64,000 nt of DNA, from assembly GCA_905178155.1 (NCBI GenBank), contig CAJINV010000005.1, positions 1,156,392 to 1,220,391 on the forward strand, in the 5' to 3' direction. This DNA is from Amoebophrya sp. A120 (taxonomy: Eukaryota > Protista > Dinoflagellata). The first letter of the stretch is position 1; every line of letters begins with the position of its first letter. Below, piece by piece: positions 1,045 to 64,000 of the stretch. The translations under genes were made by a program, and so were the position numbers. Below the pieces are notes generated by a model. The model had not been told where the DNA came from. It did not search any database and saw only the letters and a list, made by a program, of their open reading frames with translations.

Positions 1045-4000
1045 GAGCCTGCAGCACCATCAAGCTTTCTGAACAAACAGCACGGGGGCTTTCCGAAACA
1101 CACTGTCAGAGCGCCAGGTGTGCAATCAGACAACCACGAAGATCTTGTAGCCATTATGGACACGAACCATGATGGCTTTCTGTCCGCAGAAGAAATAAAT
1201 GACGACCAGTGCAACGTGCTAAAACTCGATCAACAGTCTGGCGACGGTGAGAGGAAAATTTCACTCAAGAAGTTGGATTACGCCTGTAGCGATTACTGTA
1301 CCCCGGGTGCGGCTGGTGTGGAGGATCTTGACGAGGACGTGCTCTTGGAAATCTGCCACTGCTGCCCGCCGGAAATGCAAGAAGCATTTTTCCCTTGGTA
1401 CTATGCGAACCGTGAGTACTTGAAGGCGCAGGAGGACCTCGATTTTGCGAAAATGGATGCTGACGATGACGGGCGGCTCATCGCAGACGAGATCCATGAC
1501 GGAATGTGCGACGCGGGAAAAGTCGACCACGAATGGGGCGACGGCGATGGGCAACTTACGGTGAAGGAAGTGCACACTATGTGCGATGCGGTGTGCGTGC
1601 CGGAATCCGCCCTCGAAACGCTTCCCGAGGAGGAACTGATGGCCCTGTGCCACTGCTGTCCGAAAGGTATGCAGGGGCGTTTTTTTGCGCACTATTACGG
1701 AAGAAAAAGCGGCGCTTTTGCGGGGAATCAGGCCGCAGAGGCCAGAATGGCGCTGGACTACTTGGTCTATCGCAACCCGGGAGATGTTGACCACGAAGAT
1801 CTGCAAGTCGCTTCGAGCACCACGACCTCGAACGACAGCGAAGGGGCTGCAGCCCCGTCGGCCTACCAATTTTGCAGCGTAGTGCACATGAACGAGGCGC
1901 CGGTGCGGGTTTGTGGCCGTTTCGACAAGGATGCAAACGCAATCTCCGTGACTATCGCGCGCTGTGTATCCTGTGCAAAAACGTCGTCCCCACACCATAG
2001 TCAAGTTGGGAAATCTGCTAGAGAAAGCAGCCAGCTTTGTTGTTGCGCATGACAAGTTTGGCCTCGATTATAGCTAGCTCAGCAGCGTCACAGGTCTAGC
2101 GCATCGCTCTAATTGGAGCGTCACAAATTCCGAAAAACGAGTACGAAAATTCCTAGCATCATGGGGCTCCGCATGAGAAATATTCTCAGCATGCAGATCC
2201 ATCTGCATATACAACTATGGGGTGGGGACGTTTTTACATAGCATACTACGTGGAGAAGGTAGTCGCGTGGGACCTGACCGACTGCCCGCAGCAGAAAGCC
2301 ACCTGGCAGAACCTGTTTCGGCAGACGTCTGAGAAAACCTACGACAGTTTTTATGGACTGCAAAAATGTCTGGGTCTGGAAGATTCTGACACTTGTCATG
2401 CACGTTTTGCATGAGCCATGATGTCTGTGATGCATCCCCTAGCAATACAGTTTTTTTGAGGGCTTCTTGATGCGTATTCCGCATGACAAATGCCTTCTCA
2501 GCGTAGCAAAAATTGCCTTCCTTTTGGTACTCATGCAATACAATTTTTTTTGGAATCCAAATGCAGCACCATCACAAGTTGCATTCTTCCAGACCCAGAC
2601 ATTTTTACATTTGATAGTTTTTACGATCACGCGTTCGAGCCGCAGTGCAACCTGGTGTCCACGTATGCAAGAAAGGAACTGTGTAAGTGTAACTCCGTAA
2701 AAATGCAGAACATGCAACAGTAGAGTTACACCTGTCATGCCACACGACAAGCATGAAGTCCTCGTTTCATGTGTGTTTTATCCCCTCATAAGGCACCCAT
2801 GACAGGTTATTTTCTCTGTCATGTAGAACAAATTTGTGATGCTGTCAGGGAAAGAAAGTTACACTAACACAGTTTTTTTATTGGATACCACGGACCGATC
2901 CGCCCTGCTGGAGAACGGCAGGCCCGACGTGTATCCTGAGTAAAAATGTCCCCACCCCAGAGTTGTCATGCAGATTTGCGATGACAGGAAGACTTGTAAT
3001 GCGCATCTCCATGAGAGGCAATACCAGTCGTGTTTTGGAATTTGTGATGCTGTGAACAGGATGAGGAGGTGGATTTGTTATGCGGCTTCCCTTGCTAAAC
3101 TGCACTACAATACAGCCTGCAACTTGTCATGCGTGACTCACAAAACTCCTAGGTTTGTGGTGCTAAGTCCCCAACTTGACTCTAGTGTGGGGACGTTTTT
3201 ACTCAGGATAACGTGCAGAAGAGCTTCAACCTGGTCCTGGTGCCGTTCGGCTGGAAGAGCCGCGCGCTGTGGAAGCAGCACACGGAGAGGCTGGTCGAGC
3301 AGCTGGAGCACGACTACCCGCCGCTGAACGCGCGCGAGATGGGCGGCCGGTTGAATTGGCACCGGATCGACGCCTGGCCGAGGTTTGTGGGTTCGGGGGT
3401 CTCCGACTACGAATGCAACGACGTCTATCCAGGAAAAAACACCCATCCCCATCCAATTTGTCATGCAAAACATGCATAAAATACACTATTTGTCATGCAA
3501 AAAATGGATGGGGATGGGTGTTTTTTCCTGGATAACGTCACGGGATGGGACTTCGTCAACTGCTTCTTCGACGCGGACCGCGACTGGTACCGGATCGCAC
3601 GCTTCGCGAACGACCAGTGCAATCGCGAGTACCAGGCCCAGGGTGGATTGGCGCACATGACGGTGCTCGTCCAGGCACGCATGGATCACCGTTCCGAGAG
3701 CGACAACGCGTACGGATTCGCCATGATGTCCTGGAACACCCTATCCTAAGGAAAAACGTCCCCGCCCCAGAGTCAAGATGGGGACTTTGCAACACAAACC
3801 TCGAAGTTTTGGGAGTCATGCATTACAAATTGCAGGCTCTAGTGTAGTAGTTCAGTTTAGCAAGGGAAGTCGCATTACAAATCCATCTGCTTAATATCCT
3901 GTTTACAGCATTACAAGTTCCAAAACATGATCGGAAATCCCTATCATGTGGATGCGCATTACAAATGCTTTTGTGCTTGCAGATCTGCATGGCAACTCTG

Positions 4001-5268
4001 GGGCGGGGATGTTTTCACACAGGATACACCCTGCTGACCCCGGCGGTTCCGGGGTGGAGCTACAAGACCGCGGCCTTATCAAATGTGAAAATGTCTGGGT
4101 CTGGAACGATGTAACTTGTGATGCGCATTTCAGAACACACAAAAATCTCTGATGCATAGGCAGCAAAAGCTGCTCACTTTCTGTCACCAAAGTGGGGGAC
4201 TTGCCATGCGGATTCGGCATTGCGGACGCTTCTCGAAACCTGTGATGCAGCTTCCACGCCAGACCTTCTGTGTCATGCAGAAACAGCATGACTCTTCCAG
4301 ACCCAGACATTTTTACATTTGATAGGCCTCCACGGTCGCCCACGAGCTGGGCCACGCCCTATTCGGCCTGGAAGACGAGTACCATTGGACGACAACCAGC
4401 ACTTTCTTCCCGAATTGCGGCAACGAAAAGTCGCAGTGCAACCGCTGGCTCGACCTGATCGACGCGGGGCTTTCCGGCTGCTACAAAGGCAGCTGCCAGG
4501 AGGAGCAAGGCTACATCGACGGGCCGGAGGTGGACAGCGTCATGGCCTGGTACGGCCGCCAAATGTCGCACAGCCAGAAGCGGATCTCCTGTTGCAAGTA
4601 CTTCAAAGTGCACAAGTTCACGCCTGCCTACTGCGACGTGTACAACCGGACGTATCGCAACAGGACCCTGCAGCGCCCCGTGAACGTCACGGTTCAGCAG
4701 GACGGCTGGGTGGTGGACGAAAGTAAGCACAATCTGGCCGGCTACTACAAGGGCCCGGTGCCCTTGCCGCTGCAGCAGAAGCTGATGGAAACCAGACTGG
4801 CGCCGAGGGTGGTATGGCGTTCTCAAATGTTACATTCTCAACTGTTACATGATTTGTCATGCAAAATTTAAATTGCAAGCAGAATCGATGTGATTAAGCT
4901 GCTGCGCTGCATGATAAATTCTAGAGGAGCCAAACAGGCTGAGAATCTCTCTGTGCCAAATCTGTGATGCGAGACGTGCAAGGTCATCCCTTTTACTTTT
5001 GTCATTCGCGCATCACAGATTCATGTAACAATTGAGAATGTAACAGTTGAGAGCGCCATACATGGACTGGGCCACGGTTTCCGCCGACGGCGTGGTTCAG
5101 CTGGACATCACCTTGAATCCCAAGTCCGAGTTTTATCCGGGCCAGGATGTGGTGCTCGACCTGGCCGGCTTCTGCGACGACCCGGGGCACTGGCGCAACC
5201 AGGAGCTGGACGTGAAAGCCAGTCATCCGCTCTTGGGAAAAGTCGAGTACCCGGACGTGAAAAACTAA
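1..5268 (+). CDS. Zinc metallopeptidase (M64/IgA-peptidase-like) with N-terminal EF-hand/Cys-rich repeats; 5' end outside window; interrupted by 8 TIR introners
   Basis: ORF 19-2052 has repeated MDTDHDGFLSADEI EF-hand-like loops and ICHCC motifs. Removing the 8 elements plus one TSD each gives one frame containing FNLVLVPFGW, TVAHELGHALFGLEDEY (HELGH 4341-4355), and a stop at 5266-5268. Confidence 0.75.
1967..2245. mobile_element. Introner, TIR group B (279 bp)
   Basis: TATCCTGTGCAAAAACGTC...GACGTTTTTACATAGCATA; flanks CTGTG/CTACG (3/5); removal of 284 nt restores frame. Confidence 0.8.
2352..2616. mobile_element. Introner, TIR group A (265 bp)
   Basis: TATGGACTGCAAAAATGTCTGGGTCTGGAAG...CTTCCAGACCCAGACATTTTTACATTTGATA; TSD GTTTT/GTTTT. 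Confidence 0.92.
2664..2887. mobile_element. Introner, TIR group G (224 bp)
   Basis: TATGCAAGAAAGGAACTGTGTAAGTGTAACT...AGTTACACTAACACAGTTTTTTTATTGGATA; TSD CCACG/CCACG. Confidence 0.9.
2932..3210. mobile_element. Introner, TIR group B (279 bp)
   Basis: TATCCTGAGTAAAAATGTCCCCAC...GTGGGGACGTTTTTACTCAGGATA; TSD ACGTG/ACGTG; reverse-complement homolog of 3742-4026. Confidence 0.93.
3426..3534. mobile_element. Introner, TIR group C (109 bp, smallest)
   Basis: Perfect 30-bp TIR TATCCAGGAAAAAACACCCATCCCCATCCA; TSD ACGTC/ACGTC. Confidence 0.95.
3742..4026. mobile_element. Introner, TIR group B (285 bp)
   Basis: TATCCTAAGGAAAAACGTCCCCGCCCCAGAG...CTCTGGGGCGGGGATGTTTTCACACAGGATA; TSD CACCC/CACCC. Confidence 0.92.
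4077..4324. mobile_element. Introner, TIR group A (248 bp)
   Basis: TATCAAATGTGAAAATGTCTGGGTCTGGAA...TTCCAGACCCAGACATTTTTACATTTGATA; TSD GGCCT/GGCCT; interior homologous to 10977-11230. Confidence 0.93.
4813..5060. mobile_element. Introner, TIR group D (248 bp)
   Basis: About 40-bp TIR TATGGCGTTCTCAAATGTTACATTCTCAACTGTTACATGA; flanks GGTGG/CATGG (3/5); frame restored (PRVDWATV). Confidence 0.87.
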
Positions 5269-6903: not shown

Positions 6904-9163
6904 ATGGCTTCCTTCAAGTCTATACCGGTGATTACGCCCTACACCTACAGTTCGAACATGGGTCCGGGCAGCGAGCACGGGGGTCCCTTTTACCCGCTCG
7001 GGCAGCAGTACCACCAGCCTGACATGCTGGCCGACCAGCTGAAGAAGGAGCGAAATCCCCCGCGAGCGGTGATCACGGGCGTGAACACGGACTTCAAGCT
7101 GGACTCCTCTCGCCGGCTGCGGTGGAACGACCCAAAGTCCGGGGTCGTCGACCAGTGTACCATGTACACCTACGGGCAGCCGGACTCTCACCGCTCCTGC
7201 CTATGCATTGCAAATATCGATCTGGGTCTGGAAGGTCGTTGCAAATTGTCATGCTAGTACGGTTGGATCGTGCAAAATAAAAATTTCAATTTGTGTTGCA
7301 TGGCTACCAAAAGTAGTTCGTTGTCCACTTTTATTAAACAAGTTTAGAGGCAGCTTATTCATCTCATGCAGGGGAGGCATGATAGAGATCTCACAGAATC
7401 TTCTGTCATGCTCATGGGCCATGAAATAAAACCAGCATGACCACAAGTCTCGCTATTCTCCAGAAGATCCAGACATATATTTGCAGTTGATACTGCGTCA
7501 CCAGCTACAACAAGGACGGCCTCACGATGAACTCCTTGTCCCACTACAACAAGGTCGGCGCCAAACACCTGCAAGCCCAGTCGCGGTCCAGTCTATCAAA
7601 AGTAAAAATGTCTGGGTCCTCTGGGAACTTGTGATGCTGGGTAGCGTCTCATGATGAGGCTACAAATGCTGGCTCAGCATGACAAGTTTCTGAGCTCCTC
7701 GGTGTTGCCTATTCTGCATGACAAACTGCGTAGTTTCTGCATCACGGAAAAGCGGAGCTGCTCTTGGGTAACGTGCATGACAGATCATTTAAGAGTCATG
7801 CCAGACAAGCATGACAAACATGAACAATTCTTCCAGACCCACACATTTTTACTTTTGATACCGTCCCATCCACTCCTACTTCAGCGAACCGAGAAGAAAG
7901 GTGCCGGACATCGGAACCAAGGTGTGGGATAACTTCGGCATCGACGGCCACATGAAGGCAACGTCAGAGGAGATCGGCAACTGGTCGCCGTTGTGGTACT
8001 TGATAGTGTGAATGAAATTCTCAACTTCTTATTTCGGCGTGCTTTAAATTTGATATTGTTTCCTCTGCGCTTGCTTTCTCTTCCAAACGAAAAACGTTGT
8101 TGATCCGCAACTTGATAGTTGCCCTCGGTATTAGTGCACTTGAAGAAGTTGTCGCAAAATCGTTTATTGAGACGGCGATCCTCGGCCTCGGGCTAAAGCT
8201 AATCCTGAAGAAGTTCTTACAGGGTTCTCATGCGAGAATCTGTTGAAAAAAAATAACCACCAGGTACCGCGCCGTGAACGACATGAACGTGTATGCCAAC
8301 CTGCGACCGGACACCATGAAAGCCCTCGGTCTCGAATACGAGGAGCCGGGCGTCAGATACGGCATGATCAACGGGGAGTTTCTTCCCAAGGTCGAAAAAG
8401 TGAACGATTCCGCGCGAAGTTCGGCGTGGAGCGAGAACCACAAGTACGTGGGGTATCCCAAAGAACCCTCCATGCAGGCCCGGGCCTACTACGGCAACGA
8501 CGCGCGGACCAGCTTCGCCTTGGCCGACGTCCAGAAGTACATGTCACCGCTATGCCACTGCAAACCAATTTGTCAGTCGTGTTTGGGTCGGGATTATTTC
8601 TGGTCATGCGAGTTTATGTAAAAGTACTACAGAAACTTCAACAGGATCTTTATCTTTTGTGATGGTACGAACATAGATAGGACAAGGAGCATTTTTGAGG
8701 GTTATTTCTTCTTGTTTTCTCATGCTGGGCGTTGTACCAATTGCAATAATTTTCCAGACGACATAAAGATACCCCTGAAGTTGTAGTTGTCAAAACAATC
8801 GCAAACTTGTCATGCGGTCGTGGACCACAGAAAGCCTTTGAATATTTCCACTCTGAATAGCTTGTGCACAGCAACACAACTAGAACTACGCTGCATCCTT
8901 TACCCAGACCCAGCAGACAACATGTTTGCAGTGAATAACCGGTCTCCATCGCGAACTCGGACCCCACGTCTCTCCTGCGCGCACAGAAGAACCGGGTTCG
9001 GGAGGAGGTTTTGGCGCAGGTGCGCCGGGCACCGCAGTACGGGAGCCACCGGGGGAGCGGGGGCGGGAGGGCACTGTCCAGCGGAAGGACCGCGTCGACA
9101 ACGCACTCCACACCGAGGGCCGGCGACTTCATGCGGAAGTCCGCCTCCACACCGAGAATGTGA
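6904..9163 (+). CDS. Hypothetical protein; 3 introners plus one GT-AG intron (7996-8263)
   Basis: ATG at 6904 (MASFKSIP). Joining across 7202-7492, 7594-7860, 7996-8263 and 8551-8937 gives a continuous frame ending TGA 9161-9163. No family recognised. Confidence 0.7.
7202..7492. mobile_element. Introner, TIR group A, degenerate (291 bp)
   Basis: TATGCATTGCAAATATCGATCTGGGTCTGGAAG...CCAGACATATATTTGCAGTTGATA; TSD CTGCC/CTGCG. Confidence 0.83.
7594..7860. mobile_element. Introner, TIR group A (267 bp)
   Basis: TATCAAAAGTAAAAATGTCTGGGTC...GACCCACACATTTTTACTTTTGATA; TSD CAGTC/CCGTC; interior highly similar to 39574-39831. Confidence 0.9.
8551..8937. mobile_element. Introner, decayed group A-like (387 bp)
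   Basis: TATGCCACTGCAAAC...TGGGTCGGG and CCCAGACCCAG...GTTTGCAGTGAATA; TSD ACCGC/ACCGG; frame restored. Confidence 0.75.
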
Positions 9164-10621: not shown

Positions 10622-13600
10622 ATGAGCAAAGAACAAAGAATGTGTCTCCGGGCGCAGGCAATGAAAAGGAAAAGCTCAACGACGACCTGTCAAGCCATGA
10701 TTGTCTGGGCATTAGCGTTTTCTTCTCCTCTTGCAGGCGTGCGTGCTTTCCGGTTTCAGCTAGAAGAAGCGAAGCTCCAGCCCTTCGGCACTACCGCTCA
10801 CCGTCATTATTTCGATCGCAAGAACGGAAACAACAAGGACACCAACCTGACCGGTGATGAAGGTTTTGCTGAGAAACGCGAGATGACAAAGCAGCTCGAG
10901 CAGTGTCCTCGTCCCATTGATTGGGACCCTGCGTACGAGATATTTTCCGTCAGGGACATTGCGGAAATGTTAGCGCTATGGATTGCAAAAGTGTCTAGCT
11001 CTGGAACAAGGTTGAAACCTGTGATGCGCATTTCAGAATGCAGAAAAATCTCTCATGCATAGGCAGCAAAAGTCGCCCACTTTCTGTCACAAAAATCAGG
11101 GATTTGTCGTGCGGATTCGGCATTGCGAACGCTTCTCGAAACCTGTGATGCTAGAGCTTCCATGCTAGACCTTCTGTGTCATGCACAAGCAGCATGATTC
11201 TTCCAGACCCAGACATTTTTACATTTGATAAGCGCGACAGCTAAAAATGGGCGGGGTCGACGCAATGATGCAGGCCTTGGCGAAGAGGCTCCAGAAGTTC
11301 TCGACCAAGTCCATGAATGTGGAGTACCATGACCGAGCCGTGTTCGAAGCCATGGTGGGAAAAGCTGCAGACGATGATAAAGCGAACGGCAAAACGGACC
11401 TTGGCAACCTCGGGGCCTACGTGACGAAACTGGCGGCCAAGTGCGCGTGGGTGAAGTTGGTGCGGGGAAGTTCGGGGTGGCAGGAGTGCTTCATATCCTG
11501 AGTAAAAACGTCCCCATACGAGAGTCAAGATGGGAAATGTGCTAGACAAAGGAGCCAGCTTTGGTTGTTTCGCATGACACGTTTGTACTCGTAGTGTAGT
11601 GCTGTTTAGCTAGTTCAGAAGCATCACTTACCTAGCACATCATGCTGATTCTAGCATCACAAATACCAGAACACGACGAGAAAACGCGTCTCATACAGCT
11701 CCGCATGAGAAACTTTTTGGCACGCAGATTTGCGGGACAACTCTGGCGTGGGGACGTTTTTACACAGGATACTTCACGAAGGAGATTTACAAGGTGTACC
11801 AGGAAGCCACTTGGCAAGACGCGAAATGCTACGCGGAAGCGGCGGAACGATGGATCTCTAAGGGAGGACTGTCGGCTGGTGGTGAGGACGAACTACGCAA
11901 CATTACCAGCGTGGACCAGATTCTCGCGTCCGGCGTGGCAGGTGTTGCCAGCAGCAGTGGCACAACTACAACTTCTGGCGCAACAACTGCAAGCTCAAGC
12001 ACGGTGTTGAACAACAAGCCGAGTACAACTGTTGAAACGAAGAAAGCGGAACTGCTTCGCTCGTTCAAAAATGCAGGGTTGGTGCACGACAGTGCTGCTC
12101 TGCCGCCGGAGGACCTAGCGAGGAAGATTTGCGAGATGGAGCTTGTAGCACCGGAAATTTGCCAGAGTGATCATCAAAAAATGGACGACGACGAGGATGT
12201 TAAGGAAGAAGCAGAAGCGCTCGATTCTAACGTTGGCAGGAGGACTTCTTGTTCAGCGGACGTTGAAACAGCCGGCTCTGAAGAAGAGTCCGACAGTGAT
12301 GTTGACAACTGCTCGACGGACTCCGTCGAGGCGGAAGGTGAAGAAGGTCGGGTTCTACAGGATGGACCACGTGGTCCTGGGTCTCCTGCACGAGGATCAG
12401 CTGCCACTCCTCTTGCAGATGCCCTCAACCTTGTGAAAGGTCCGCAGAAACGGGCGTCTGCGAAAGCTAAAGGCTGCATCGAATTCCGATCCGACATGAT
12501 GAGCCCGCAGTGGATGTTTTTTCTGGACAGTGAAAACAAGCAGGGGTTTCTGACCATCCGGGGTACGGTTTACCTTGACGACTGGAATACGAATTTCAAC
12601 AGCTCGGGGGATCGGGCCAGCCCGGTGTACGCGGAATACAAGCATTCTATGCCCGCCGCAAAGTCCGCGTTGTCGATGGGTACGAACCCAGAGGAGGAGA
12701 AGGAGTTGGGACCCTTTTTGATGCTGCACAAAGGTTTTTACGACCGCGCGGCCACGGCAATCATGGAACTGGAGGTGGAGTTGTGGAAGCAGAGCAAGAA
12801 GATTGCGCAACAAGAACAGCGCGTGGCCGAGGAGAAGATGAGCAAAGACGAAGGAGGTCGTGATGAGGATGATGGAGCAGGTACTAGTGGTAGTGAACGT
12901 GAACAAACGGTGGAAACCGAAACGGCTCCTGTGATGATCCGCGATTCCACGAGCAACTGCGATCCAGCCGACGAGGAAGTACTCGCTTTCGAAAAGCAAG
13001 CGGGGACAGAGAGTCACAAAAGCGACGTGTTCCGGAATTTCGCGGAAGAAAAAACTTACCTGGAAAAGCGCCAAACCAAATTGCCGACCTGCTTTGTCGA
13101 ATATCTGAAAAAAAACATCGCAACTAAAATCTCCGACAAGCTGTTCCTCCAGGGCCACTCGTTGGGCGGCGCCGCGGCATTGGTGATTCACCGTCTGAGG
13201 GAAAAGTCCGACCTATTGCAAGCGATGACGAACAACTCTGCCGGGAAAAAGATCCACACGAACGCGTTCTCCGCGCCCCCAATGTTCACGTCCGGGTCGC
13301 CGGAGCAGGCAAAGCTGGCTTTTGTGTACCTCGCCACCGGGAAACTCGCCAACTGGGCGCTGGATGTAAACCGCGTGCTTGCGGGCGACTACCGCTGCTC
13401 CTGGCTTGAGGAGCTCGCGACGGAGTTTCCGGACGGTGACTTGAATAAACAGGAGACTATATTGTGGAAGAACTCCACGAACCTGTTTTTCAATTTCGAC
13501 TTTGTGCCCCGGCTCGCGTTCATGAACGTGCAGAAGGAGCAAATTGTCCTCCCGCCCGTAGAGAAAGTTTTCTGGCTTCGCGACACCGCGCCCGCGGGGC

Positions 13601-16208: not shown

Positions 16209-19200
16209 ATGAGCAAAGAACAAAGAATGTGTCTCCGGGCGCGGGCAATGAAAACGAAAAGCTCAACGACCTGTCAAGCTATGATGTTCTGGGCATTTGC
16301 GTTTTCGACTTCGCTTGCAGGCGTGCGTGCTTTCCGGTTTCACCCAGAAGAAGTGGAGCTCCAGACCTTCGGCACTACTCCTTCCGCTCACCGCCATTAT
16401 TTCGATCGCAACGGAAACAACAACGACACCAACCTGATCGGTGATGAAGGTTTTGCTGAGATGAATGAGGCGGCCACGGCCATCTGGACAAAGACTCCAC
16501 CTGCGCATCATGATTCTAAAGTTGGAACGGGAAAAAGTGCAGCCGGAGAAGAACTTCGAAAAGATGAAACAACAAAGGCCGTAGTTGAAGTAGCTCCCAC
16601 GAGAAAACAAATGATGCAAAATAGTAAGTTGGATCGTGCAAAATCCATGCTCTCCGGAACAAATGACAAAGCCAAAAAACTGAAACGCGAGGTGACAAAG
16701 CAGCTCGAACGGGGTCCCACTGATTTTGACCCTGCGTACCAGATATTTTCTGCCAAGGACATTGCGGAAATGTTAGCGCAACAGCTGAAACTGGGCGGCC
16801 TCGACGCGGCGATGCAGGCCTTGGCGAAAAGGCTCCAGAAGTTTTCGACCAAGTCCATGAATGTGGAGTACCATGACCGAGCCGTGTTCCACGCGATGGT
16901 TGGAAAGGCTGCAGACGATACTAAAGCGAACGGCAAAACGGCCCTTGGCAACCTCGGGGCCTACGTGGCAAAACTGGCGGCCAAGTGCGCCTGCGTGAAG
17001 TGGTGGCGGGGAAGTTCGGGGTGGCAGGAGTGCTTCACGAAGGAGATTTACAAGGTATACCAGGAAGCCACTTGGCAAGACGCGAAATGCTACGCGGAAG
17101 TGGGGGAACGATGGAATTTCAAGGGAGGAGGACTGTCGGCTGGTGGAGGCGCTGGGGACGATGAGGAACATCAACTACGCATGATCACCAGCGTGGACCA
17201 GATCCTCTCCGGTCGTGTAGCAGGTGTTGCCAGCAGTGCGACAACTACAATTGCCGGTGGAAAAAGAACTTCTACAAGTACGATGCTGAACAACAAGCCG
17301 AGTGCTGTTGAAACGAAGAAAGCGGAAATGCTTCGCTCGTTCAAAAATGCCCGGTTGGTGTACGAAAGTGCTCTGCCGGTGAAGGACCTAGCGAGCAAGA
17401 TCTGCGAGATGGAGCTTGTCGGACCGGAAAATTGCCAGAGTGAAGATCGTCAACAAATGGACGACGAGGAGGATGTTGAGGAAGAAGCAGAAGCGCTCGA
17501 AGATGTTGATTCTAACGTTGGCAGGAGGACTTCTTGTTCTGCGGACGTTGAAACAGCCGACTCTGAAGAAGAGTCCGACAGTGATGACAACTGCTCGACG
17601 GACTCCGTCGAGGCGGAAGATGAAGAAGGTCGGGTTCTACAGGATGGACCACGTCATGGTTCTCCTGCACGAAGATCAGCTGCTGCCACTCCTCTTACAG
17701 TTACCCTCAACCTTTTGACCGGTCCGCAGAAACGGGCGAGCGCAAAAGCTAAAAGCATCGAATTCCGATCCGACAAGATGAGCCCGCAGTGGATGTTTTT
17801 TCTGGACAGTGAAAACAAGCAGGGGTTTCTGACCATCCGGGGTACGGTTTACTTTGACGACTGGAACACGAATTTCAATAGCTCGGGGGATCGGACCAGC
17901 CCGGTCTACGCGGAATACAAGCATTTTATGCCCGCCGCAAAGTCCGCGCTGTCGATGGGCGCGAACCCAGAGCAGGAGGAGTTGGGACCCTTCTTGATAC
18001 TGCACAAAGGTTTTTACGACCGCGCGGCCACGGCAATCATGGAACTGGAGGTGGCGTTGTTGGCGCAGAGCAAGATTGTTGTGCAACAAGAACAGCGTGT
18101 CGTGGTCCAGGAGATGAAGAAAGACGAAGGAGGTCGTGATGGAGATGATGAAGCAGGTACTAGTGAACATGCGCAAACGGTGGAAACCGAGACGGCTCCC
18201 GTGAAAGTAATCCGCGATGCCACGACCACTTGCGATCAAGCCGACGAGGAACTCCTCGCTTTCGAAAAGCAAGCGGGGACAGAGAGTCACAAAAGAGACG
18301 TGTTCCGCAATTTCGCGGAAGGAAAATCGTACCTGGAAAAGCGCCAAACCAAATTGCCGACCTGCTTTGTGGAATATCTGAAAAAAAACATCGCGACTAA
18401 AATCTCCGACAAGCTGTTCCTCCAGGGCCACTCGTTGGGCGGCGCCGCGGCATTGGTGATTCACCGTCTGAGGGAAAAGTCCGACCTATTGCAAGCGATG
18501 ACGAACAACTCTGCCGGGAAAAAGATCCACACGAACGCGTTCTCCGCGCCCCCAATGTTCACGTCCGGGTCGCCGGAACAGGCAAAGCTGGCTTTTGTGT
18601 ACCTCGCCACCGGGAAACTCGCGAACTGGGCGCTCAATGTAAACCGCGTCTTTGCGGGCAACTACCGCTGCTCCTGGCTGCAGGAGCTCGCGACGGAGTT
18701 TCCGCATGATAATTTAAACAAGCAGGAAACCAGACTGTGGAAGAACTCTACGAACCTGTTTTTCAATTTCGACCCGGTGCCCCGGCTCGCGTTCATGAAC
18801 GTGCAGAAGGATCAAATTGTCCTCCCCCCCGTGGAGAAAGTTTTCTGGCTTCGCGACACCGCACCCGCGGGGCTGCAAGAAAAGTTGGACAAGTGCGGAA
18901 AAAGCTGCAGCAGAACTCTTACCCGCGTTGCTACCGTATTCCGGGTTCCGCTTTACGCGCAAGCGACGGTCTTGTCGAGTCTAGACCAGATGCTCTCGCC
19001 CTATCCAAAGGAATTCTTGCTGGACGCAGTGGAGGAACACAAAGCGAATACTTACGAACCGCTGTTGGTGGCCTTGTTAGGAGGAAAGAACAGCAAGAAA
19101 GATAGCCCGATATCATCTGGTGAAGCGAGTCTTGAATTGGGGATGAAGGGTGAACAAGAGAACAGCGTCCCTACTTCTGAGACGCAGAACGTACAAGAAT

Positions 19201-29380: not shown

Positions 29381-29423
29381 GCCTAATATCAGTGGTGACT
29401 GCCCACCGAGGTACTTACTATAC

Positions 29424-47145: not shown

Positions 47146-48657
47146 ATGACAGCCTGCCGTTCCGAGTTCACGGGCTACGTGAGGTCCGTAGACAAGGACA
47201 AACTTCAATCCGAACTTCTCTCTTCTGACGGGCACGCAGCCCCCTGCCATAGGAGGAAACCCTTCGCCGACGCGCGCTACCAGAGCAACATCAGGACGCT
47301 TGGCGCCGACGAGATGCCGAACGTGGAAACGAAACTGGACCGACACCTGGTGTCCGATGGCGTCAAGGGGAGTCTGCGCATGAGCGCGAGCCCACTCCGC
47401 GGGGAGAGGCAAGCGGCGCAGCAGGCAGCAGCAGTGCGGGAGCCGATCGATATTGCGCCAAGTTTCAGCGAAGACTCCATGACGTCGATCTACTATGCAA
47501 TAAAAAAAGATTGTAGCTGTAAGTTTGTGTTGATGCGCTAAGTACATGTGTTAAGATGATTGCGTCTCATGCTGGTCATGCATTGCAGGACCAGGAGTCA
47601 ACTCAAGCGCGGTTTCACGTGCTATTTGCGCAAGACAGGTTTTTGCTGTCATGCCAAACAGATTTGTAATGCTGGCCAGCCAAAATCAAAAAGTTACACC
47701 TACGATCTTTTTTTCTTTGATTTCTACCCGAACGCGACGAGCATACACAAGAAGAGGACGGTACACAATTTAATTTGATTTGTGCACCACGAGGATGAGC
47801 ATGCATCAGAGAAAATGCTTATGCTGCATTGCATGCTGGGGTAACGACCACAACAATTTTTCGTTTCAAAAATAATCTCCTCAGGTGAAGCACGAACACA
47901 CCCCATACGCTCACAGCGAGGAGTTTACCATGCTCAAGCAAGAAGTCCGCGACTTCAACGACGGCGTTCCGCCCTCCATGCTCAGTGGCAGCTATGCAGC
48001 AGGAGGGTATTTTGTAGTTTCTATGTTTTCCACTTTCACTCTCAGAAGTTCACCTCAATCCGCATGCCATGGTGTCATGACTGTTGGTTGATGTGGGCTT
48101 TTTTGGCACCGGGGGTATCTATTACTTTGTCACAGCAGCGCCGACCCCTCACCATCCCTCCGCGGCGTCCCGCATGGCTACCAAGACTATTACAACCCAA
48201 ACCTGGTGGAACGGAGCACGTTGTTAGACCATAACCCGACGCGATCGAGCGCGCCGGTGGAGTCAGAGTCGTCGAAAACGGGAAAAAAGCTGATTCCGCA
48301 GCCGGAGAGGTTACAGGGCAACCCGGACGCGCTGATGCACGTCGGACGTATTACTTATCCGATTCGCTTAGCCTTAGCCTTACTAATGTTGGTGCAATCA
48401 AATTTTGGGTCTACTTCGCATGACAGACGCATTAGGTTACTTTATGAAAGTCTAGCATGACAGGCTGCAAGAACAGTAGAGACTTAAGAAGAAAAAACGC
48501 ATCAGATGGCCTCGGCAGCGGGCCGGAGGCGGTACCGAGAAAAAACTACCATCTAATGGTCCACCAAGCCCCCTTGCGCGGCGACTACTCCCGACAAGTC
48601 ATCACGCGGTACGAGCAGAGCCCAGCGAGCAAGGGACAGCAGGATTTGTTTCACTAG
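47146..48657 (+). CDS. Hypothetical protein; 1 introner plus GT-AG introns; start uncertain
   Basis: Introner 47494-47722 and introns 47761-47884, 48007-48135, 48348-48505 give a continuous frame to TAG 48655-48657. Confidence 0.6.
47494..47722. mobile_element. Introner, TIR group G (229 bp); right end ATT
   Basis: TATGCAATAAAAAAAGATTGTAGCTGTAA...TTACACCTACGATCTTTTTTTCTTTGATT; TSD TCTAC/TCTAC. Confidence 0.85.
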
Positions 48658-54175: not shown

Positions 54176-57100
54176 ATGGATATGGCCTCCCCGATTACAA
54201 AGAAAGACGACGCAGTCCGTCGGAATGTCCCCGAAGTCGACGCCTGGCAGGAGCGGGTCCGCAACCCGCCGCCGCCTGACCCCGTGCGAGACAATTTTGC
54301 GGCGGCGCACATCCTCGAAACTTTGCAGGAAATCCAGGTGGTGGGCGAGGAGAAGATTCAGAAGCAGGAAACCAGGGAGGCGAGAAGAAAATCTTTGGAA
54401 AGGTGGACCGACGAGACGCTAGGCCCGCTGCAGAAGTCCCCCATCATCGGGAAAAAATTGCGGATTGGCAATAGCAGTACTTCTGCTTCTTCGCCTTCAC
54501 GACACGGGCAACCGCAACAGATGGTGAAGCCAGGGTTTTTACAATCCAACACTTCCAGCACGGGAGTACCACGATCACACGATCCCTTTTTAGCTGGTGG
54601 ACCCAGTGTGAGTAATGTAAATACAGCTACCGGTAGTTCATCTCAGCCCGGTGCGGGGAAGAAAATCAATGACCACGTGGGGAACGTGATCGACAGTGTG
54701 GAGTTCCTGCAGGACCACGATCGAGTTGCCACGGGACATTCTTCGAACAAAGTGACGCCCTCCGCTACCCCGCCGTTGCAGGAGTCCAGGACAGCCTCGA
54801 AAAACAGCACGACGCAGTCGTCAAATGTGGTTAAAGATGACCACAGTAGAAGAAGGAGCAAAACGACCGCGTCGAAGGACAGCGCGACTGGATCGGCGAC
54901 TGGAAAGAACAAGACAAAAAGTAGAAAAAGCAGGACGAGCAGAGGCAGTCGGGACAGCAGAGCGAGTGGTGACGATGAGGACGAAGATTTCGCGCCAGCC
55001 GGTGTGGACAACCTGCTGTTCCGCGACGACACAAATTTGGAGCAACTCGACGCCGATCACCCGTTTTTAGACCGGAATATCAAAGTTGGCGACAGCGTCG
55101 TGATTCATCAGCGCACGATCGACAGTAGTCCGAGCGGCTCCGAGGACTTAAACACAGAGGAGCTCGGGTCGGAGGACCATGCGGAGGTTGGTGGTCCTCA
55201 CGATTATGCCAATGCGGCCACCAGAGGACCCAAGCAAAAAGTCATGTTTGTGCCCGGTGCGAAGGAGGAACATGCTGGCGTCGGGTCGTTTCGGAAAGCG
55301 GCGATGCGGGTCCGGGATTCTGTCGTGAATCTACCCGTTTTCGCCAAAGTCGCCCAGATGCGACGCAACCGGATGCAGAAAGAGGAGACAAAGGACCATA
55401 TTGGGGTCGTGCAGGACTGGCGGGAGTTGAATACGTCGAAAAAGGACCACAAGAGTAAACCCGCAGTGGATGTAAGAGACTTGCACATGCACGAGAAGAA
55501 CACAAATCCCTTGTCGGATTTCGTTTCCTGGGTGGGTGGGGTTTTCTCCTCGAGCAGCTCAAAGCACCAACTCCAGTACGACGAAGACGGTAACCCGGTG
55601 GTTTTCGGGCAGAACGGGGCGTTGCAGGCGGGAGAGACGCAAGTGCAGCAAAACCCGGTTACCGGTTCGTGGTCGTTCAAAAAACACGCCGAAGAGCTGT
55701 TCGGAAAGAAAAAGAAGAAAAAGAAACGACGACGCGCGAAGTTGCTGATGCCGAGATTAAACGCGATCGCAGGGTCGAACAAGCAGAAGCAAATGATGCG
55801 GAAAACTTTGTCGGATACAGACATTTACAGCAATTTGAACAACCACAAGGAGAACGATAACTGGTCGGAATCCAGCGAAGACGAGGAGGACTCCGACAAT
55901 TCCTCCGCCCAGTCGGTGAAGCTGAAAAAGAAGATGATCAAGTATGACCCGGTCAGTTGCTACAATCTCAAACGTTACAATAGAATCTGGAAGGCTGTTA
56001 TGCAAGAGGTGCATTATCTTCTACCAAACTCTCATAGGATTGCCCATAACAAGTTCCGGAGTGCCAAACCGCACTACAATCGGGCGAAATTTGTATTGCA
56101 GAAAGTGGAATGCTGTCCGAGTCTGTCATGCTCGTCAGGCAAGACAAGTTTGATTTGGATTTCTGATTCTATTGTAACGTTTGAGATTCATTGTAACGTC
56201 TGAGCAAGCCATATCAAGGTCCTCGTTAAGCAGCAGGACAACGCGAAGACCCACCCGCACTACAAGGTGTACAAGTGCACGTGTTACAGTTGTACGGTGT
56301 GGGCCGCGTTTGCGTCGTTTTTCCTGATTTTCGGGGGCATTTTGTACTTCACGTCGATTTATGCATTGCAAATATGTCTGGGTCTGGAAGAATGCAAGTT
56401 TGTCATGCTTGTCTGGCATGAGCCTTAAATCTGTGTTGCGTGAGCAGGAAAAGGGCCCCTTGCCTGTCAGGCAAAAACGCAGTTTGCCATGCGGAAAACG
56501 AAACACATGGCGCATTATAAACTTGTCAACATGCTTGGCTGCGCATTGCAGTGCGCCTGCCATTCACAGATTTGCATCACAAGTTTCCAGACCCAGACAT
56601 TTTTGCATTTGATACGATTTTGCCGTCGTTGCGGTTCATCTACAACGAGTACGGGACCGCGGAGCGGATAGAGGCCCAGTTTGTCCACTTTCTCGAACAT
56701 ATACTGTGCAAAAGTACCGTACTCGTAGTAATTGCTATCATGCATGACAAATATCCCTTTTTAGGCAAATCAGCATTACAAATTCCATTTTTCTTCTTGA
56801 AAAAATTTGTGATGCAATTTATACTAGTACGATACTTTTGCAATGCATAGAACAGTCGTCGTTTGACGTGGTGGAAGTCTTGAACCAGGCGGTGCAACAG
56901 GGACTGTACAAGGAGCCCCTGCATTTCCAACACCTCGACTGGCTCCTGACCCCCTTGCTGCAGCAGCGACGAGCGGGGGTGAACCGGTTGGAACTCGGGT
57001 TTCTGGGTACCCGGAAACCGGTCACGGAACACGGAATCATTTTCCGGAAGACCGGACCCTTAGGGCACTTCATTCTGCAATCTGACATGTACCCGAGCTG

Positions 57101-60100
57101 CGTTTCCATCGGCGCCTTCGGCTGCGTTCCGGACATGAAGATTCCGCAGCGGAGCTGGTACCAGCGGTTGACAAAAATCTCCTTCGAGAATCTGTACCTG
57201 ATCTACCCCTTGGATTTGTTGACGATGAAAGTCAGCCCGGAAAACTTCGAAATGAGCAAGCAGTCGATTGTCAAGATGAACGAGTGGGACTGGTTTCGGT
57301 ACGTTTTGGCGAAGCAGGACATCAACGAAACGAGTATGGTGAGTAACAACGAAATCAGAATTGACGAGTGGAAGCTCGCCTACGAGGAGTGCCACGCTGC
57401 CGCGGCTAGCGGCGACTTCTGTGACGCGGGGGGCAACCCTTTGGTGGCTGTTTTCAACAATCCGCTGAATGCGATAATAGGTGCACGAGCCTCGGCCTCG
57501 GGACAAAGTGGTAGTGGAGGGTCAACATCTGCGACAGGTGTGAGCTCCGCGACAGTCAGTGCTTCTGCTTCTTCAAACAGTACTGCAATTATGATCTCAT
57601 CTGCCAGCACCAGCAGCACCTCCACTCTTACTACGACCGCTCCAGCACCTCTGCAAGTGTTGAACACGACACCAACCTCGACTACCACGATAACCTTAAC
57701 CATTCCCTCCTTCCCCAACGTCGTCGACGGGTGCTTCACTGCTTACCAAATCACCGACAACTACTATTACAGTGAAAATCTCCCCACTCCCAAAGTTGCA
57801 ATAACTTGTGATGCGAAGTTTCCAAATGAAAACCTTTTGCCATGCATGAAAGGAGTATGAATCTTTCTGATGCAGAGTCTAGGCGTATGTAGCATCGCTT
57901 GCATGAGGACAAGCGCCGCTCTTGCTGGGCTCGTTTGCAATACAGATTTTTGCTAATCACGATTGAAAATTTGCAATGCTGATAGATGCAAGAGGGCGAA
58001 TGTTTCGTTTGGAAAGGTTTGCAATACTAACAAATGCTCCCAAGTTCTGGGTGGGGGGCATTTTTCATTGTAATAACTACCTCTATTTCCATTTCAAGCA
58101 CGACCGGAGCGAGCACCTCTACGTGATCGACCCACCATATGGAACGGTCAGGATTGAAATTGACAAAGTTGAAAAATTTGTGATGCATAAAATCGATACC
58201 AGTTGGAACCCCAATTCTTCTCGGCGCATGACAAATTTTGGCACCGTCTGAAGCCAGTTTATCATGCTGCTTAGGGACAGACGGCGTCTTTTGTCATGCT
58301 ACTTTGGCAGCCCGCCTATCGCAGACCCCAAACAGGCTGACAGTTGGCCTCACTTGTCATCCCTGCAAGAGAGGCGCTGCATGCCTTGCAATTTCTGCAT
58401 GAGTAACTACTTATTTCAACTTTGTCGATTTCAATCCTGGCGCTTCCATACACCGGAATCCTGTTACCGCAGCGACAGCGGCCAGTTATCAAAAGGAAAA
58501 ATCCCCCCACCCCATACTCAAACTAGAAATTTGTGATGCAGATTTGTGGCCACAAATCAGCTTTGTTATGCTAGAAGGGAAAAGATGCGGACTGTAGTGC
58601 TTGTTGGTGTGGGAAAGCCTTGCATCTTCAGCATGACAGGGGGCAGCTGGAAGTGGGAAACAGCATGACAAATTGCCTGCAAAAGAGGCCACAGCTGCGT
58701 CTCTTGGCCTTCTAGCATTACAAATCGATTTGTGTACTCAAATGCAGCATCACAAATTTCGTTTTCGATATGGGGAGGGGGGATTTTTCCTCTCAATACC
58801 AGTCCAGGGGCATCAACTGGGAGGAGCAAACTATCGCGAGGCAGAGGGCGTACCTGCAAGGTAGTTTCTTTCACACTTGAGATTTTTTGGCTTTATTGCT
58901 GAAGGAAGTGGTCATGTGCTGATCCTGATAGACATAGATATGCGCGCAAAGTTGGATTTGGTTTAACGAGTAACAAGCGTACTTAAGTCAATCCCTAAGT
59001 CCTATCAGGTCGAAAATGGCAGCGTCGCATCTATTTCGAGTGGAACCAGGATGGCCCGGATTTCGTGTCCACGTCCGGCACGCAAATAGATCTCTCCGGG
59101 GATGCGTTCAAATTTTCGCCCGCTATGGGTTTGACGTTCAAGCTGGAGTTTCCGGACGCTCCGTTGGACCCAAATTTGCAAAATCTGAACCTCGCGGAGA
59201 TGCAGGTCACCCACATAATTGGTCGGATTTCCGTCGATTTGACCGGTTGCAGTTCCTTCATGCGGGACCCGTTTGTAGATGAGTATTTGGGGGCAGAATC
59301 CAGTGCCGCCCAGGTGCGGGAGGACTTCGAAGCGTTCATTGTGGATAAAGGCGGAAGAATCGTCTGCGCGCGGTCGCTAGACGACCAGGTGCGGAAAGTG
59401 GACAACAGCGGGAAAAATACTCAGTTGCAGTTCAAGAAGATCTGGGAATTAGCTCACTTCAAAGACGATTTGGGATTGTCTCCAACCAGCTGGGCGCTGA
59501 CCGTTGCGAAATTGGACACCATTCCAACCTTACCGCCGCTCTCCGGCGGGATGGTGGGAGTGCGGAGCAAAGTCGACCAGTTTGAACTGCCGAACTACGC
59601 GAACGAATATGAAACAACCACTTCCGCCTCCAGCTCCGCGGAGCTGGACCACGAGGACGCGAATTTAGGGCCGCTCGGCTGGGGCTCCCCCTTCGTGATC
59701 CGGCGGATCAGACACAGTCGCATGGCAGGCTTCTACGTCGTGACCCGGATGACGACCGCACCCTTTTCCTCCACTGCAAGCGGGATCGCCGCGGTGTTCA
59801 TGACGCTGGTCATTCTGGGGGGTTCCCCGTTTGTGCTCTGCTGTTCCATCGTCGGGTTATTCGCGATCCGGGATGTCGCTATCTACAAAAAGGAAACGCA
59901 GAGGCAGCGCGCGTTGTTGGAAGCGAAAGCAACGTTGGAAGCGGTGGCCGCGGCGACCGGCGGTGGGGGAACGGCGGGACGGAACTTGAACCAGACGGAG
60001 GTCGACGATGCGAAAATGATCGAGGCGGCAGCGTTATGCACTGCAAATAATATGTCTGGGTAAGGAAGGATAGGAACTTGTGATGCGTCCTGTGGATCAC

Positions 60101-61566: not shown

Positions 61567-64000
61567 ATGCTCGCACCCTGCTGGTACTGGTGGTGGTGGT
61601 CGTGGTTCCAGCTTGATCTCCAGAATTTGAACTATACTTCCTACATGGAACAAATCCTGGAGAAACATCATACGGGGTTGATGCGAGGACCTACGCTCCT
61701 TCTTGCCTACGCACGCACTCACCCGAACGTCGTTCGGCGGGAAGTAGAGATTCTCCCCGTAGTAGAAGAACCTGAAGATGCGGATATCAAAATGAAAAAT
61801 CACCCTTTCCCGCCATTGGAATCTGTGATGCGGGATTTGTGTACAAGTACACAAATCGAATTTGTCTTGCAGTAGGGGACTGCAGGCTGCAGATCTTAAG
61901 CCTAGGTAGAAGGAGCTTTGTGGTGTAAGTAGGCACTTCTTAGCATGGCAGAAGTCTACTACCCTGCACGCCTGACAGCATTGCAGACCGCCCGCATAAC
62001 GCGGCGGGGTCTCGTCCGGGTTTGCCTTCCTGCAAGACAGACTGACGTGATTTGCGGTCACAAATCTGCATGTTGAGAAGGATGCGCTTTCGATACGGGG
62101 AGGGGGATTTTTCTTTGCGACAGTGGAACAAGAACGACCACGACCGAATGAAGCACCAGGCGAGGACGACGCAGTGATAGATGACGCGGCTGCCCCGGGC
62201 TCACTGCGTGGTCCCGCTGGTACTACGAGTACTAGGACGAGCACCCCAAGAACCCTAACTAGAGGAAGTGCCACATCTTCAAGAGCCTCCGCGACCCTGG
62301 TCCGACGGACAGACGTCGAGAGCCGTGCCGCGGTGGAGAAGGGAAACGATCAAGCTGGACATCATGAAAATGAAGCAGGTCGTGCTGGACCACCAGGACG
62401 GACCACTCCTGCTGTATTCTCGGGGCGCGGGCAGATGAAGATGGATGCGGATGCGGTAGTCCGGAGCGACGAGGGCGTCGAGGGTCAAGTGGATCAAGAT
62501 GCAGACCTTTCAGCAGATGAACAACAGTACAACTACGGTCAAGATAGAGATGATGTCGATCTGTGGTCCAAAAACACCAATTCCGTTGTTCATCATCATG
62601 ATTTGGTGGCCGCTGCTCCCTCCGCTTCTACGAATTATACCACCTCCACGAGGCAGCGGGATTCCCACCAGCGTAGTATGCAGCGCCGTCACGAACACGA
62701 GCACGACACCATAATTGACAATAAACCTGGTGTCCGTGAAGCAGATCACCCAGATGAAGCAGAAACCTTCTCGGGAACTAATTACGTCCAGGCTGTGCTG
62801 TCCTCCTCCAGTAGAACTAGAACCCCAGAAGAGGATGCTCACTATCAACTTCACTGCATTGAGAAGAGCCGGTTCACCACCAAAAGAGGCGTTAACCACA
62901 TGCAATGGTCGATGTATGGCTGGGACCCGGATGACCACTGCGGATGGGACTACTGGGGGTATGACCACTGCTGCTACACAATAAAGCCTAATGGTGAGTA
63001 CTCCGCTAGTGTTCCTGCTACGGACAACAAGGACGGCTGGAAGCAGTGGAGGACGGATGAGTGGCACGGCAGCGGTTCGGGATTCGACCGTGACGCGGTA
63101 GATGACGTCCTGGCAGGTTTCAAGCAGTCCACTACGGAGATAAGTATTCCGATGACGGCCGTCGACAACGAATTATGCCACACCTCTTCGCTCACAGTGA
63201 TCGAAAAACTGTACATTGCGCGAGACAGGACCGGTTGGCGTAGGGGGTGCGATTGGAAGGGCTCATGGCATACGGACTATTGTTATTCCGACCCGAGTAA
63301 CAGCTACGGCTTCGACAGCGACGAAAAGACGTCGCACTTCCTCAAGGAGAACACGTGCGGCAATGTGGCCATGGAGGAAAAAGTGCACTTGGCGTCTTGG
63401 CGTGCACGCGTCCAAGATGCAAGTGCGAGCTGGGAGACTGGGGGGACTGGAGCCCCTGTAGCAAGACTTGCGGCGGCGGCTACAAGATGCGGACACGGTA
63501 CTGGCAGCCCCCCCACGATGGAATTGCATGCGATGGCAATGAAGAGCCAGACATCGAGGACAGCCACTGTTCCGAACAGGATTGCTGGGTCCACCCGAGT
63601 CCCACCCCGGCAGCCTATCCGAGTCCCACCCCGGCGGCCACCCCGAGTCCTACCATCGCCACCACGCCTAGCCCGGTGAACCCGAGTCCCACCACCACGA
63701 CCACCACCACCACCACCACCACCACCACCACCACCACCACCACCACCACCACCACCACCACCACCACCACCACCACCACCACCACCACCACCACCACCAC
63801 CACCACCACCACCACCACCACCACCACCACCACCACCACCACCACCACCACCACCACCACCACCACCACCACCACCACCACCACCACCACCACCACCACC
63901 ACCACCACCACCACCACCACCACCACCACCACCACCACCACCACCACCACCACCACCACCACCACCACCACCACCACCACCACCACCACCACCACCACCA
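61567..64000 (+). CDS. Cys/Trp-rich protein with thrombospondin type-1 domain and poly-Thr mucin stalk; apparent frameshift at about 63301-63420; runs out of window
   Basis: Frame restored across introner 61785-62122. WGDWSPCSKTCGGGYKMRTR (from 63439) and PSPT/poly-Thr are in frame 1, whereas ORF 62123-63679 is in frame 2. Confidence 0.6.
61785..62122. mobile_element. Introner, group E, degenerate (338 bp); right end ACA
   Basis: TATCAAAATGAAAAATCACCC...GGGGAGGGGGATTTTTCTTTGCGACA; TSD GCGGA/GTGGA; frame restored (DAEQER). Confidence 0.8.
63691..64000 (+). repeat. (ACC)n microsatellite encoding poly-Thr, over 100 units, truncated by window end
   Basis: Direct reading; in frame with the PSPT repeats and the TSP1 domain. 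Confidence 0.97.

Follow-up and report, generated by a model that had tools for sequence, protein, structure and literature searches.

Introner elements of Amoebophrya sp. A120 as transposon-derived introns: evidence for a cut register and a strand-specific terminal base

Amoebophrya is a marine parasite. We analysed a stretch of 64,000 nucleotides of Amoebophrya sp. A120 (contig CAJINV010000005.1, positions 1,156,392 to 1,220,391; hereafter the window), in which short inserts with terminal inverted repeats (TIRs) interrupt the reading frames of host genes. The closest described system is that of the introner elements of the same organism. Farhat et al. (2021; PMC7789003) report 29,850 copies in A120, about 240 nt long and of many families, without an internal transposase, bordered by direct repeats of 3–5 nt (5 bp in the legend of Fig. 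S19) and sharing an inverted-repeat motif of TAT, 7 variable nt and at least 3 A; non-canonical introns amount to 65% of the total. According to the same source, A120 has U2, U4, U5 and U6 together with 83 of 89 spliceosomal proteins, U1 small nuclear RNA (snRNA) being undetected there, and the border position of the introner introns "remains unknown" or is variable. Two other systems are comparable. The introns of Fritillaria borealis, also bounded by TIRs and target-site duplications (TSDs), are likewise derived from miniature inverted-repeat transposable elements (MITEs), lack GT-AG ends and are reported to be removed by a modified U2-type spliceosome; they differ in having mostly AG-AC or AG-AT ends and a fixed TAC target, whereas in A120 the target is arbitrary and only position +2 is fixed (PMC11282704). 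The nonconventional introns of euglenids, as described in PMC12501133, share with the A120 elements a terminal stem, offsets counted from that stem, a longer 3′ overhang, coexistence with GT-AG introns and a probable MITE origin, but their signature is N3CDG...CHG N5-6/R as against N-TAT...ATA-N4 in A120, where the exon start follows no purine rule (132/226 vs about 128 expected). Our literature search, which did not extend to subscription papers, found none that fixes the splice register or the enzyme for A120, although figures S19–S25 of PMC7789003 may bear on the register.

The inserts in the window are published introner elements of A120 and belong to a class already known. The system is real and striking, but it has been described before, in a genome that is already annotated, and what our analysis adds is a testable splice code. 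Compared with the A120 introners as presented in PMC7789003, the additions are a fixed register of one nucleotide before and four after the element, a constant 5-bp TSD demonstrated by empty sites, the strand-specific invariance of U+2, and a common subterminal motif, TTGT(C/G)ATGC. Thus, the cut register and the strand-specific base evidence are new here, while the class and the guess of a Ginger-like origin are in print. On balance, the elements are miniature DNA transposons that are likely cut from the pre-mRNA with a constant offset, probably by a relaxed U2-type spliceosome guided by their hairpin.

A scan for inverted ends with flanking repeats yielded 29 elements of 109–387 bp in the window (Table 1; elements are designated below by their first position). 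All 29 start with TAT, 27 end in ATA (the exceptions are 47494, with ATT, and 61785, with ACA) and 21 are flanked by a perfect 5-bp duplication, so that all inserts of a preliminary description, made from the sequence alone, were recovered. When the TAT was not assumed, 19 window sites combined at least 15/20 TIR matches with a perfect 5-bp duplication, compared with 0 in each of 3 block shuffles. The TIR alignments reach 22–90 bp from the element ends, somewhat wider than the 20–45 bp first given, and the TIR cores form 10 groups at the threshold used, or approximately 7–8 once close pairs are merged, near the seven or so proposed initially. As in other MITEs, the elements are short, non-coding, multicopy and bounded by TIRs; their GC content is 44%. 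The predicted RNA fold shows a long terminal stem, comparable to that of the euglenid introns, with a median z of −8.2 (29 elements, 12 shuffles each) and 16–30 of the 30 terminal positions paired in register. The published inverted-repeat definition (TAT, 7 variable nt, A run) also describes the window elements, the A run being weak in the 4813, 55943 and 58138 types, and so do border repeats of 3–5 nt, repeated families and the lack of an internal transposase. An Rfam scan of the window gave 0 matches, as did three TIR patterns searched against viral contigs. All host frames lie on the + strand. A retained element would place at least one in-frame stop in the host frame at 29/29 sites; removal of the element plus 5 nt continues the frame at 28 of them and at 60035 gives back the gene's own stop codon, in agreement with the frame restoration noted earlier. 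The open reading frames (ORFs) obtained in this way reach 1096, 1024, 793 and 1035 aa.

For a larger sample, the TIR pattern was used to extract 145 loci (L001–L145; 731 kb in all, with some overlap) from a single public assembly, which is not established to be of the same strain as A120. These loci carry the same element families, with identities of up to 95% and matches to 28/29 window elements, and add about 425 elements, giving 454 together with those of the window.

Removal of the elements was investigated by comparing contigs of three sequencing runs over window positions 1200–12100: X1, a DNA run, and X3 and X6, whose assignment as RNA is a guess. The contig joints used are among those listed; 514 further joints lie outside that list. 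The X3 and X6 contigs skip the elements, whereas X1 contigs read through them without differences, crossing element ends and the whole of 8551–8937. At 11/11 elements of genes 1 and 2, the skip equals the element plus 5 nt, as seen directly for three (3426, 4813 and 8551) and by length arithmetic for eight, for which the arithmetic is exact (contig gaps of 178, 46 and 230 nt); eight consecutive exact skips fall within one 3-kb contig. Elements 2932 and 3742, which belong to one family in opposite orientations, are both removed. The same arithmetic also yields the ordinary GT-AG intron 7996–8263, and because this intron is skipped as well, the X3 and X6 contigs represent spliced mRNA. No spliced contig covered the two further elements of this stretch, 10977 and 11494. 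The statement of the preliminary description that the same genes carry GT-AG introns holds for the gene with 7996–8263 but not for the covered part of gene 1. In addition, the pyridoxal kinase-HAD ORF minus its three elements is identical to the public A120 protein P0002 (738/738 residues, 100%), whose gene model already contains the three element-introns. Removal at non-GT-AG ends, the remaining trait of A120 introners, is thus found for 11/11 elements in two genes, in contigs guessed to be RNA, and for three in an annotated protein. Transcript or annotation evidence covers 14/29 window elements (11 by contigs, 3 in P0002), the other 15 being known from sequence only. We conclude that the elements are almost certainly introns at the RNA level. 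Alternatively, they could be eliminated from DNA, like the TA-bounded internal eliminated sequences of ciliates, a comparison suggested by TA-type ends in an alveolate, by the guessed types of X3 and X6 and by the 514 joints outside the list. This is very improbable, as contigs of the DNA run X1 continue past element ends and span 8551–8937, X3 and X6 also lack the GT-AG intron and show gaps between genes, and the sequence constraint described below is tied to the transcribed strand. Another RNA run bearing the same species label (X9, 2026) gave, on window 2292–5203, 10 partial reads at element ends only, as if it came from another strain with this TIR family and a different gene sequence.

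Locus L066 provides a further case, with six elements, one of 972 bp, inside the exons of RPB1. Unbroken alignments to the RPB1 of a relative are obtained only when 5 nt are removed with each element. One of the six splits the bridge helix, between yeast-equivalent residues 830 and 831, and the core segments are 82–93% identical to the relative. The element-bearing genes are alive. These data also bear on the possibility that the skips are template switches of reverse transcriptase at repeat-flanked hairpins, in genes that are dead. The anatomy of the elements is indeed a textbook substrate for such artefacts, but this explanation is hardly credible in view of the eight consecutive exact skips in one contig, which occur even at duplications matching at only 3/5 positions, of the conservation of RPB1 around its interrupted bridge helix, and of the TSD mismatches, 31/53 of which lie at third codon positions compared with about 19.5 expected from the phase counts. 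As a separate observation, the element at L066 10540–10779 is nested in an ordinary GT-AG intron of RPB1; some copies are thus passengers or twintrons.

To define the cut, we call k the number of bases of the left TSD copy that are kept; a perfect TSD hides the cut, and an imperfect one, as in about a fifth of all elements, reveals it. The contigs allow k = 4–5 at 1967, 2–5 at 4813, and 0–4 at 7202 and 8551 (both X3 and X6), while at 27151 the annotated P0002 requires a k of at least 2. The only value that fits all five informative sites is k = 4. The intron would then read N-TAT...ATA-NNNN, with one nucleotide ahead of TAT and four behind ATA included in it, and we consider a fixed 4/1 register likely. 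The assignments at 1967 and 7202 depend on leftmost placement of the joint, a placement verified at 3426, 3742 and 8551. Published splice-motif tables were considered as an independent proof of the register and rejected, since aligners slide within the TSD. Spliced proteins for genes of the loci were sought for the same purpose, and none was found.

The two ends of the elements are not under the same constraint. Coding potential oriented 405/454 elements, of which 402 were kept; the other 3, whose variation was confined to position 2, were discarded before the terminal counts as probable false positives. TAT..ATA is present at both ends in 377/402, and TGT at one end in 4. The first T is changed in 0/402 5′ arms but in 9/402 3′ arms (p=0.004), and at the third position the 5′ arms carry 8 changes and the 3′ arms 2 (2x2 Fisher p=0.0007). 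A process acting on DNA, or a reader of structure alone, would treat both arms alike. At position 3 of the stem, C-A mismatches outnumber U-G wobbles by 7 to 2, and there is no general G-U excess along it (G-U 420 vs A-C 410, positions 4–30); pairing at the base of the stem is dispensable. In the k = 4 register, the invariant first T is U+2 of the intron. The ordinary RPB1 donors of L066 that are bounded by homology read GTA in 8/8 cases and GTAT in 5/8, so that N-TAT corresponds to the host GTAT donor, the transposon end supplying its positions +2 to +4. Rows for A120 families 26 and 65 in Dataset S2 of PMC12130899 (donors GT or AT 34/36, acceptors AG or AC 0/36) agree with this, with the reservation that the aligner biases the annotated ends.

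The preliminary description had proposed a second excision pathway that reads the TAT...ATA stem instead of GT/AG. We do not favour it, because the stem is symmetric and the constraint is not, the 5′ T is invariant and N-TAT equals the host GTAT. The same evidence bears on a more specific form of the idea, in which a non-spliceosomal, hairpin-guided endonuclease and a ligase act in the same register, as suspected for the euglenid nonconventional introns. The strong predicted terminal stem would suit such a system, as would excision that is independent of orientation and needs neither G+1 nor AG; the 3′ overhang exceeds the 5′ overhang as in Euglena (N3...N5-6; PMC12501133), excised Euglena introns are reported as circles (PMC11282704), and U1 snRNA went undetected in the A120 survey of PMC7789003. 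On the other hand, the invariant base is U+2 within a host-like donor, although an endonuclease could also read a U; pairing at the stem base is dispensable, and there is no wobble excess along the stem; and families that lack TAT likewise have T at +2 in Dataset S2 of PMC12130899. We thus regard an endonuclease-ligase system as unlikely. Excision by the host spliceosome is probable, the evidence favouring a relaxed U2-type spliceosome over a separate pathway, and we infer that an element works like a spliceosomal intron. It does so without the canonical GT donor, since position +1 is free (G in 68/226) and GT and AG occur together in only 6/226 elements.

A sequence of events consistent with splicing by a relaxed spliceosome would be the following. 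A cut-and-paste DDE transposase of the integrase clan, whose gene lies elsewhere or has since been lost, would bind the TIR and TTGT(C/G)ATGC and insert copies in both orientations, showing little preference for particular targets. The transcript is predicted to fold into a long terminal stem, and this hairpin may hold the intron ends together. The donor would be N/N-U-A-U, the host consensus GUAU with +1 freed, and the acceptor, with no AG requirement, would be measured 4 nt from the stem. The candidate branch point, at −7, is the opening A of ATA; it has 2 changes compared with 8 for its mirror base (p=0.11). A precedent for the −7 spacing comes from Giardia and Trichomonas, in which a constant distance links the fused branch point and 3′ site (PMC6679479), yet branching at this position in A120 appears doubtful. 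Because the intron equals the element plus one TSD length, the original coding sequence would be exactly restored, and insertions would be nearly free and could spread. A bolder version, which we put forward only tentatively, is a U1-less spliceosome with a ruler code, needing neither G+1 nor AG but only U+2 at the end of the hairpin and a fixed tail of 4 nt, possibly with branching at −7. If this were true, any TAT...ATA transposon with a 5-bp duplication would make a perfect intron wherever it inserted and whichever way it faced, and this would explain the invasion by tens of thousands of copies.

Several observations weigh against the fixed register and its spliceosomal reading. The informative sites are five, and 1967 and 7202 each rest on one visible joint end; contigs mask minor isoforms, and the RNA nature of X3 and X6 is a guess. 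When the register was tested by codon likelihood on 53 TSD mismatches, the result was flat. At L059 9990–10301, the neighbouring repeat unit equals the right TSD copy, the opposite of the simplest expectation for k = 4, and published intron ends also fit the mirror register (family 3: AG+AC 1776/3852; PMC12130899 Dataset S2). The strand counts include 373 elements from outside the window, drawn from the other assembly, which may not be that of A120. G+1 with an AG acceptor, which defines U2 introns, is absent, AG occupying −2/−1 in 22/226 elements vs 16.7 expected; the A at −7 has 2 exceptions and is present in only 4/8 ordinary RPB1 acceptors; and a fixed spacing from branch to AG was not seen in ordinary introns, for which the de novo calls are noisy. 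Some of these points would equally suit a register that slides from copy to copy, for which the Fig. 3 legend of Farhat et al. (PMC7789003), the mixed annotated ends, the L059 site and the small number of informative sites may be cited. We find sliding improbable, since all five sites agree on one register in two samples, the strand-specific invariance of a single base implies a fixed geometry, and the variability in print would be expected from aligner ambiguity within a perfect 5-bp repeat.

The manner of insertion was deduced from empty sites. A tandem paralog (16191–19472; 87% identity) contains neither element of the gene at 10571–14184, and the corresponding positions hold AGCGC and CTTCA once each. 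These single 5-mers show that the elements are insertions and their duplication a true 5-bp TSD, which bears out their earlier interpretation as MITE-type elements with TIRs and TSDs; a single 5-mer was also found at 7 repeat or paralog sites in the loci. After correction for codon position, no strong preference is seen among the target 5-mers, and tests for palindromy of the TSD and for extension of the stem by it detected neither. The four large families occur in both orientations relative to transcription (57:53, 26:20, 24:20 and 18:17). The motif TTGT(C/G)ATGC is present in 353/418 short locus elements, at 6.7 per kb vs 0.4 outside, mostly 30–50 nt from the element end and pointing inward (356/412 within 60 nt). 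It is a putative binding site for one transposase serving all TIR groups.

Further features of the insertions were recorded. Insertion phase is uneven in the loci, with 107, 54 and 65 of 226 elements in phases 0, 1 and 2 (k = 4 register; p=3e-5), and the corresponding counts for the 29 window elements are 12, 4 and 13. In a family of about 320 bp (27459 and 58487 in the window), the TATT end is 3′ in 20 locus copies and 5′ in 6, an imbalance (p=0.009 in one of 80 tests) that may reflect selection disfavouring U at intron position +5. Elongated elements with intact ends and TSD contain captured or nested sequence at L015 505–1608, L066 9024–9995 (972 bp, inside an RPB1 exon), L043 3862–4492 and L042 571–1051. 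The paralog mentioned above is part of a tandem duplication (window 9711–20526, 81–87% identical) of a lipase-3-like gene and its flanks, with elements in the first copy only; the X6 contig at this duplication is closer to the element-free copy (25 differences).

The enzyme that mobilised the elements probably belongs to the integrase clan. As stated in the preliminary description, none is encoded in the window: a Pfam scan of its 87 ORFs found no transposase or integrase family, nor did a scan of 104/180 long ORFs of the loci. No autonomous copy with the same ends was found in the 64-kb window or in the 731 kb of partly overlapping loci, where a search for widely spaced TAT...ATA ends (up to 15 kb apart in the window, up to 9 kb in the loci) gave only composites of 457–1104 bp with captured or nested sequence; the one long ORF of these composites that was scanned had no Pfam match. 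A 6.2-kb TAT...ATA pairing in L064 was set aside, since its ends belong to two distinct short elements on either side of a host gene. Some Copia elements have 5-bp TSDs and TA ends. An origin as solo long terminal repeats is nevertheless less likely given the long TIRs, the inverted subterminal motifs and the derivatives formed by internal deletion or capture. The termini of Ginger2 are TGT..ACA, and the A120 elements do not have them. As to the families treated in PMC10045372, IS3EU/GingerRoot shares the TA..TA termini but usually has a TSD of 6 bp, not 5; IS481EU fits in its TNT..AYA termini but has TSDs of 4, 15 or 25 bp; and Ginger2 fits in its 4–5-bp TSD. Since none of these three combines TAT..ATA with a 5-bp TSD, we file the elements in none of IS3EU, IS481EU and Ginger2. 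The initial suggestion of an IS3EU- or Ginger-like transposase thus meets the usual 6-bp TSD of IS3EU as an obstacle, and its Ginger-like part had been published before, for A120 family 38. In Dataset S2 of Gozashti et al. (2025; PMC12130899) this family is listed as "Ginger, 5-bp TSD, TA/TA termini", with ORFs of Copia/Gypsy homology, whereas their main text describes it as lacking the homology, the termini and the TSDs of known Gingers. Family 38 is about 810 bp long with coding remnants, whereas the window elements measure 109–387 bp and lack such ORFs; the two are likened by description only.

How the 65% of Amoebophrya introns that are not GT-AG are removed has been an open question since 2021, and the register N-TAT...ATA-NNNN with its one invariant base makes direct tests possible. 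If the spliceosome works here without G+1 and AG, it would represent a natural bypass of the textbook docking of the 3′ splice site; if the agent is not the spliceosome, it would be a second structure-guided splicing machine outside the euglenids. In addition, the register rule would fix the intron borders in the A120 annotation.

Table 1. Positions of the TIR elements, the empty target sites and one ordinary intron in the window.
Feature	Position	Strand	Remarks
TIR element	1967..2245	+	TSD CTGTG/CTACG; transcript retains left copy at positions 3-4
TIR element	2352..2616	+	TSD GTTTT; removed with 5 nt by length arithmetic
TIR element	2664..2887	+	TSD CCACG; removed by length arithmetic
TIR element	2932..3210	+	TSD ACGTG; family of 3742, opposite orientation; removed by length arithmetic
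TIR element, shortest (109 bp)	3426..3534	+	TSD ACGTC; 114-nt skip directly seen
TIR element	3742..4026	+	TSD CACCC; removed by length arithmetic
TIR element	4077..4324	+	TSD GGCCT; removed by length arithmetic
TIR element	4813..5060	+	TSD GGTGG/CATGG; 253-nt skip directly seen; left copy retained at positions 1-2
TIR element	7202..7492	+	TSD CTGCC/CTGCG; right copy retained at position 5
TIR element	7594..7860	+	TSD CAGTC/CCGTC; removed by length arithmetic
Ordinary GT-AG intron, gene of 7202-8937 elements	7996..8263	+	likewise absent from transcript-like contigs
TIR element, longest (387 bp)	8551..8937	+	TSD ACCGC/ACCGG; 392-nt skip directly seen; right copy retained at position 5
TIR element	10977..11230	+	TSD AGCGC; paralog has empty site
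TIR element	11494..11771	+	TSD CTTCA; paralog has empty site
Empty target site, single AGCGC	16775..16779	+	element-free paralog 16191-19472
Empty target site, single CTTCA	17033..17037	+	element-free paralog 16191-19472
TIR element, pyridoxal kinase-HAD gene	27151..27412	+	TSD GGAAC/GAAAC; P0002 retains left copy at position 2
TIR element	27459..27781	+	TSD ATCTC; missing from annotated P0002
TIR element	27931..28193	+	TSD CGTCC; missing from annotated P0002
TIR element	32479..32740	+	TSD GTCAC; frame restored, sequence only
TIR element	34837..35115	+	TSD AAAGC; frame restored, sequence only
TIR element	35168..35316	+	TSD ACCGC; frame restored, sequence only
TIR element	39574..39831	+	TSD CGCCG; frame restored, sequence only
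TIR element, variant last base (ATT)	47494..47722	+	TSD TCTAC; frame restored, sequence only
TIR element, in 1035-aa restored ORF	55943..56213	+	TSD TCAAG
TIR element	56360..56614	+	TSD CGATT
TIR element	56700..56849	+	TSD GAACA
TIR element	57765..58075	+	TSD ACTAC
TIR element	58138..58450	+	TSD CACCA/CACCG
TIR element	58487..58798	+	TSD CCAGT
TIR element, at host stop codon	60035..60299	+	TSD AGCGT
TIR element, variant 3′ end (ACA)	61785..62122	+	TSD GCGGA/GTGGA

Other features of the window and the loci were noted. The gene that corresponds to P0002 (window 26301–29380) fuses pyridoxal kinase to a HAD hydrolase, a fusion found also in other database proteins. A gene for a multi-repeat PPR protein lies at 42096–43853; in its lineage the plastid is reported lost and the mitochondrial genome is perhaps lost, and the RNA target of the protein could be nuclear. 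Repeats other than the elements comprise an internal one in EF-hand gene 1 (window 1–1055, with 1–431 and 625–1055 being 99% identical), a 384-bp segment that occurs twice at 87% identity (39839–40200 and 45715–46089) and is not a TAT...ATA element, and a long triplet repeat from 63650 up to the window end at 64000. Finally, at L012 635–4090, two adjoining long ORFs jointly match a C-5 cytosine DNA methylase.

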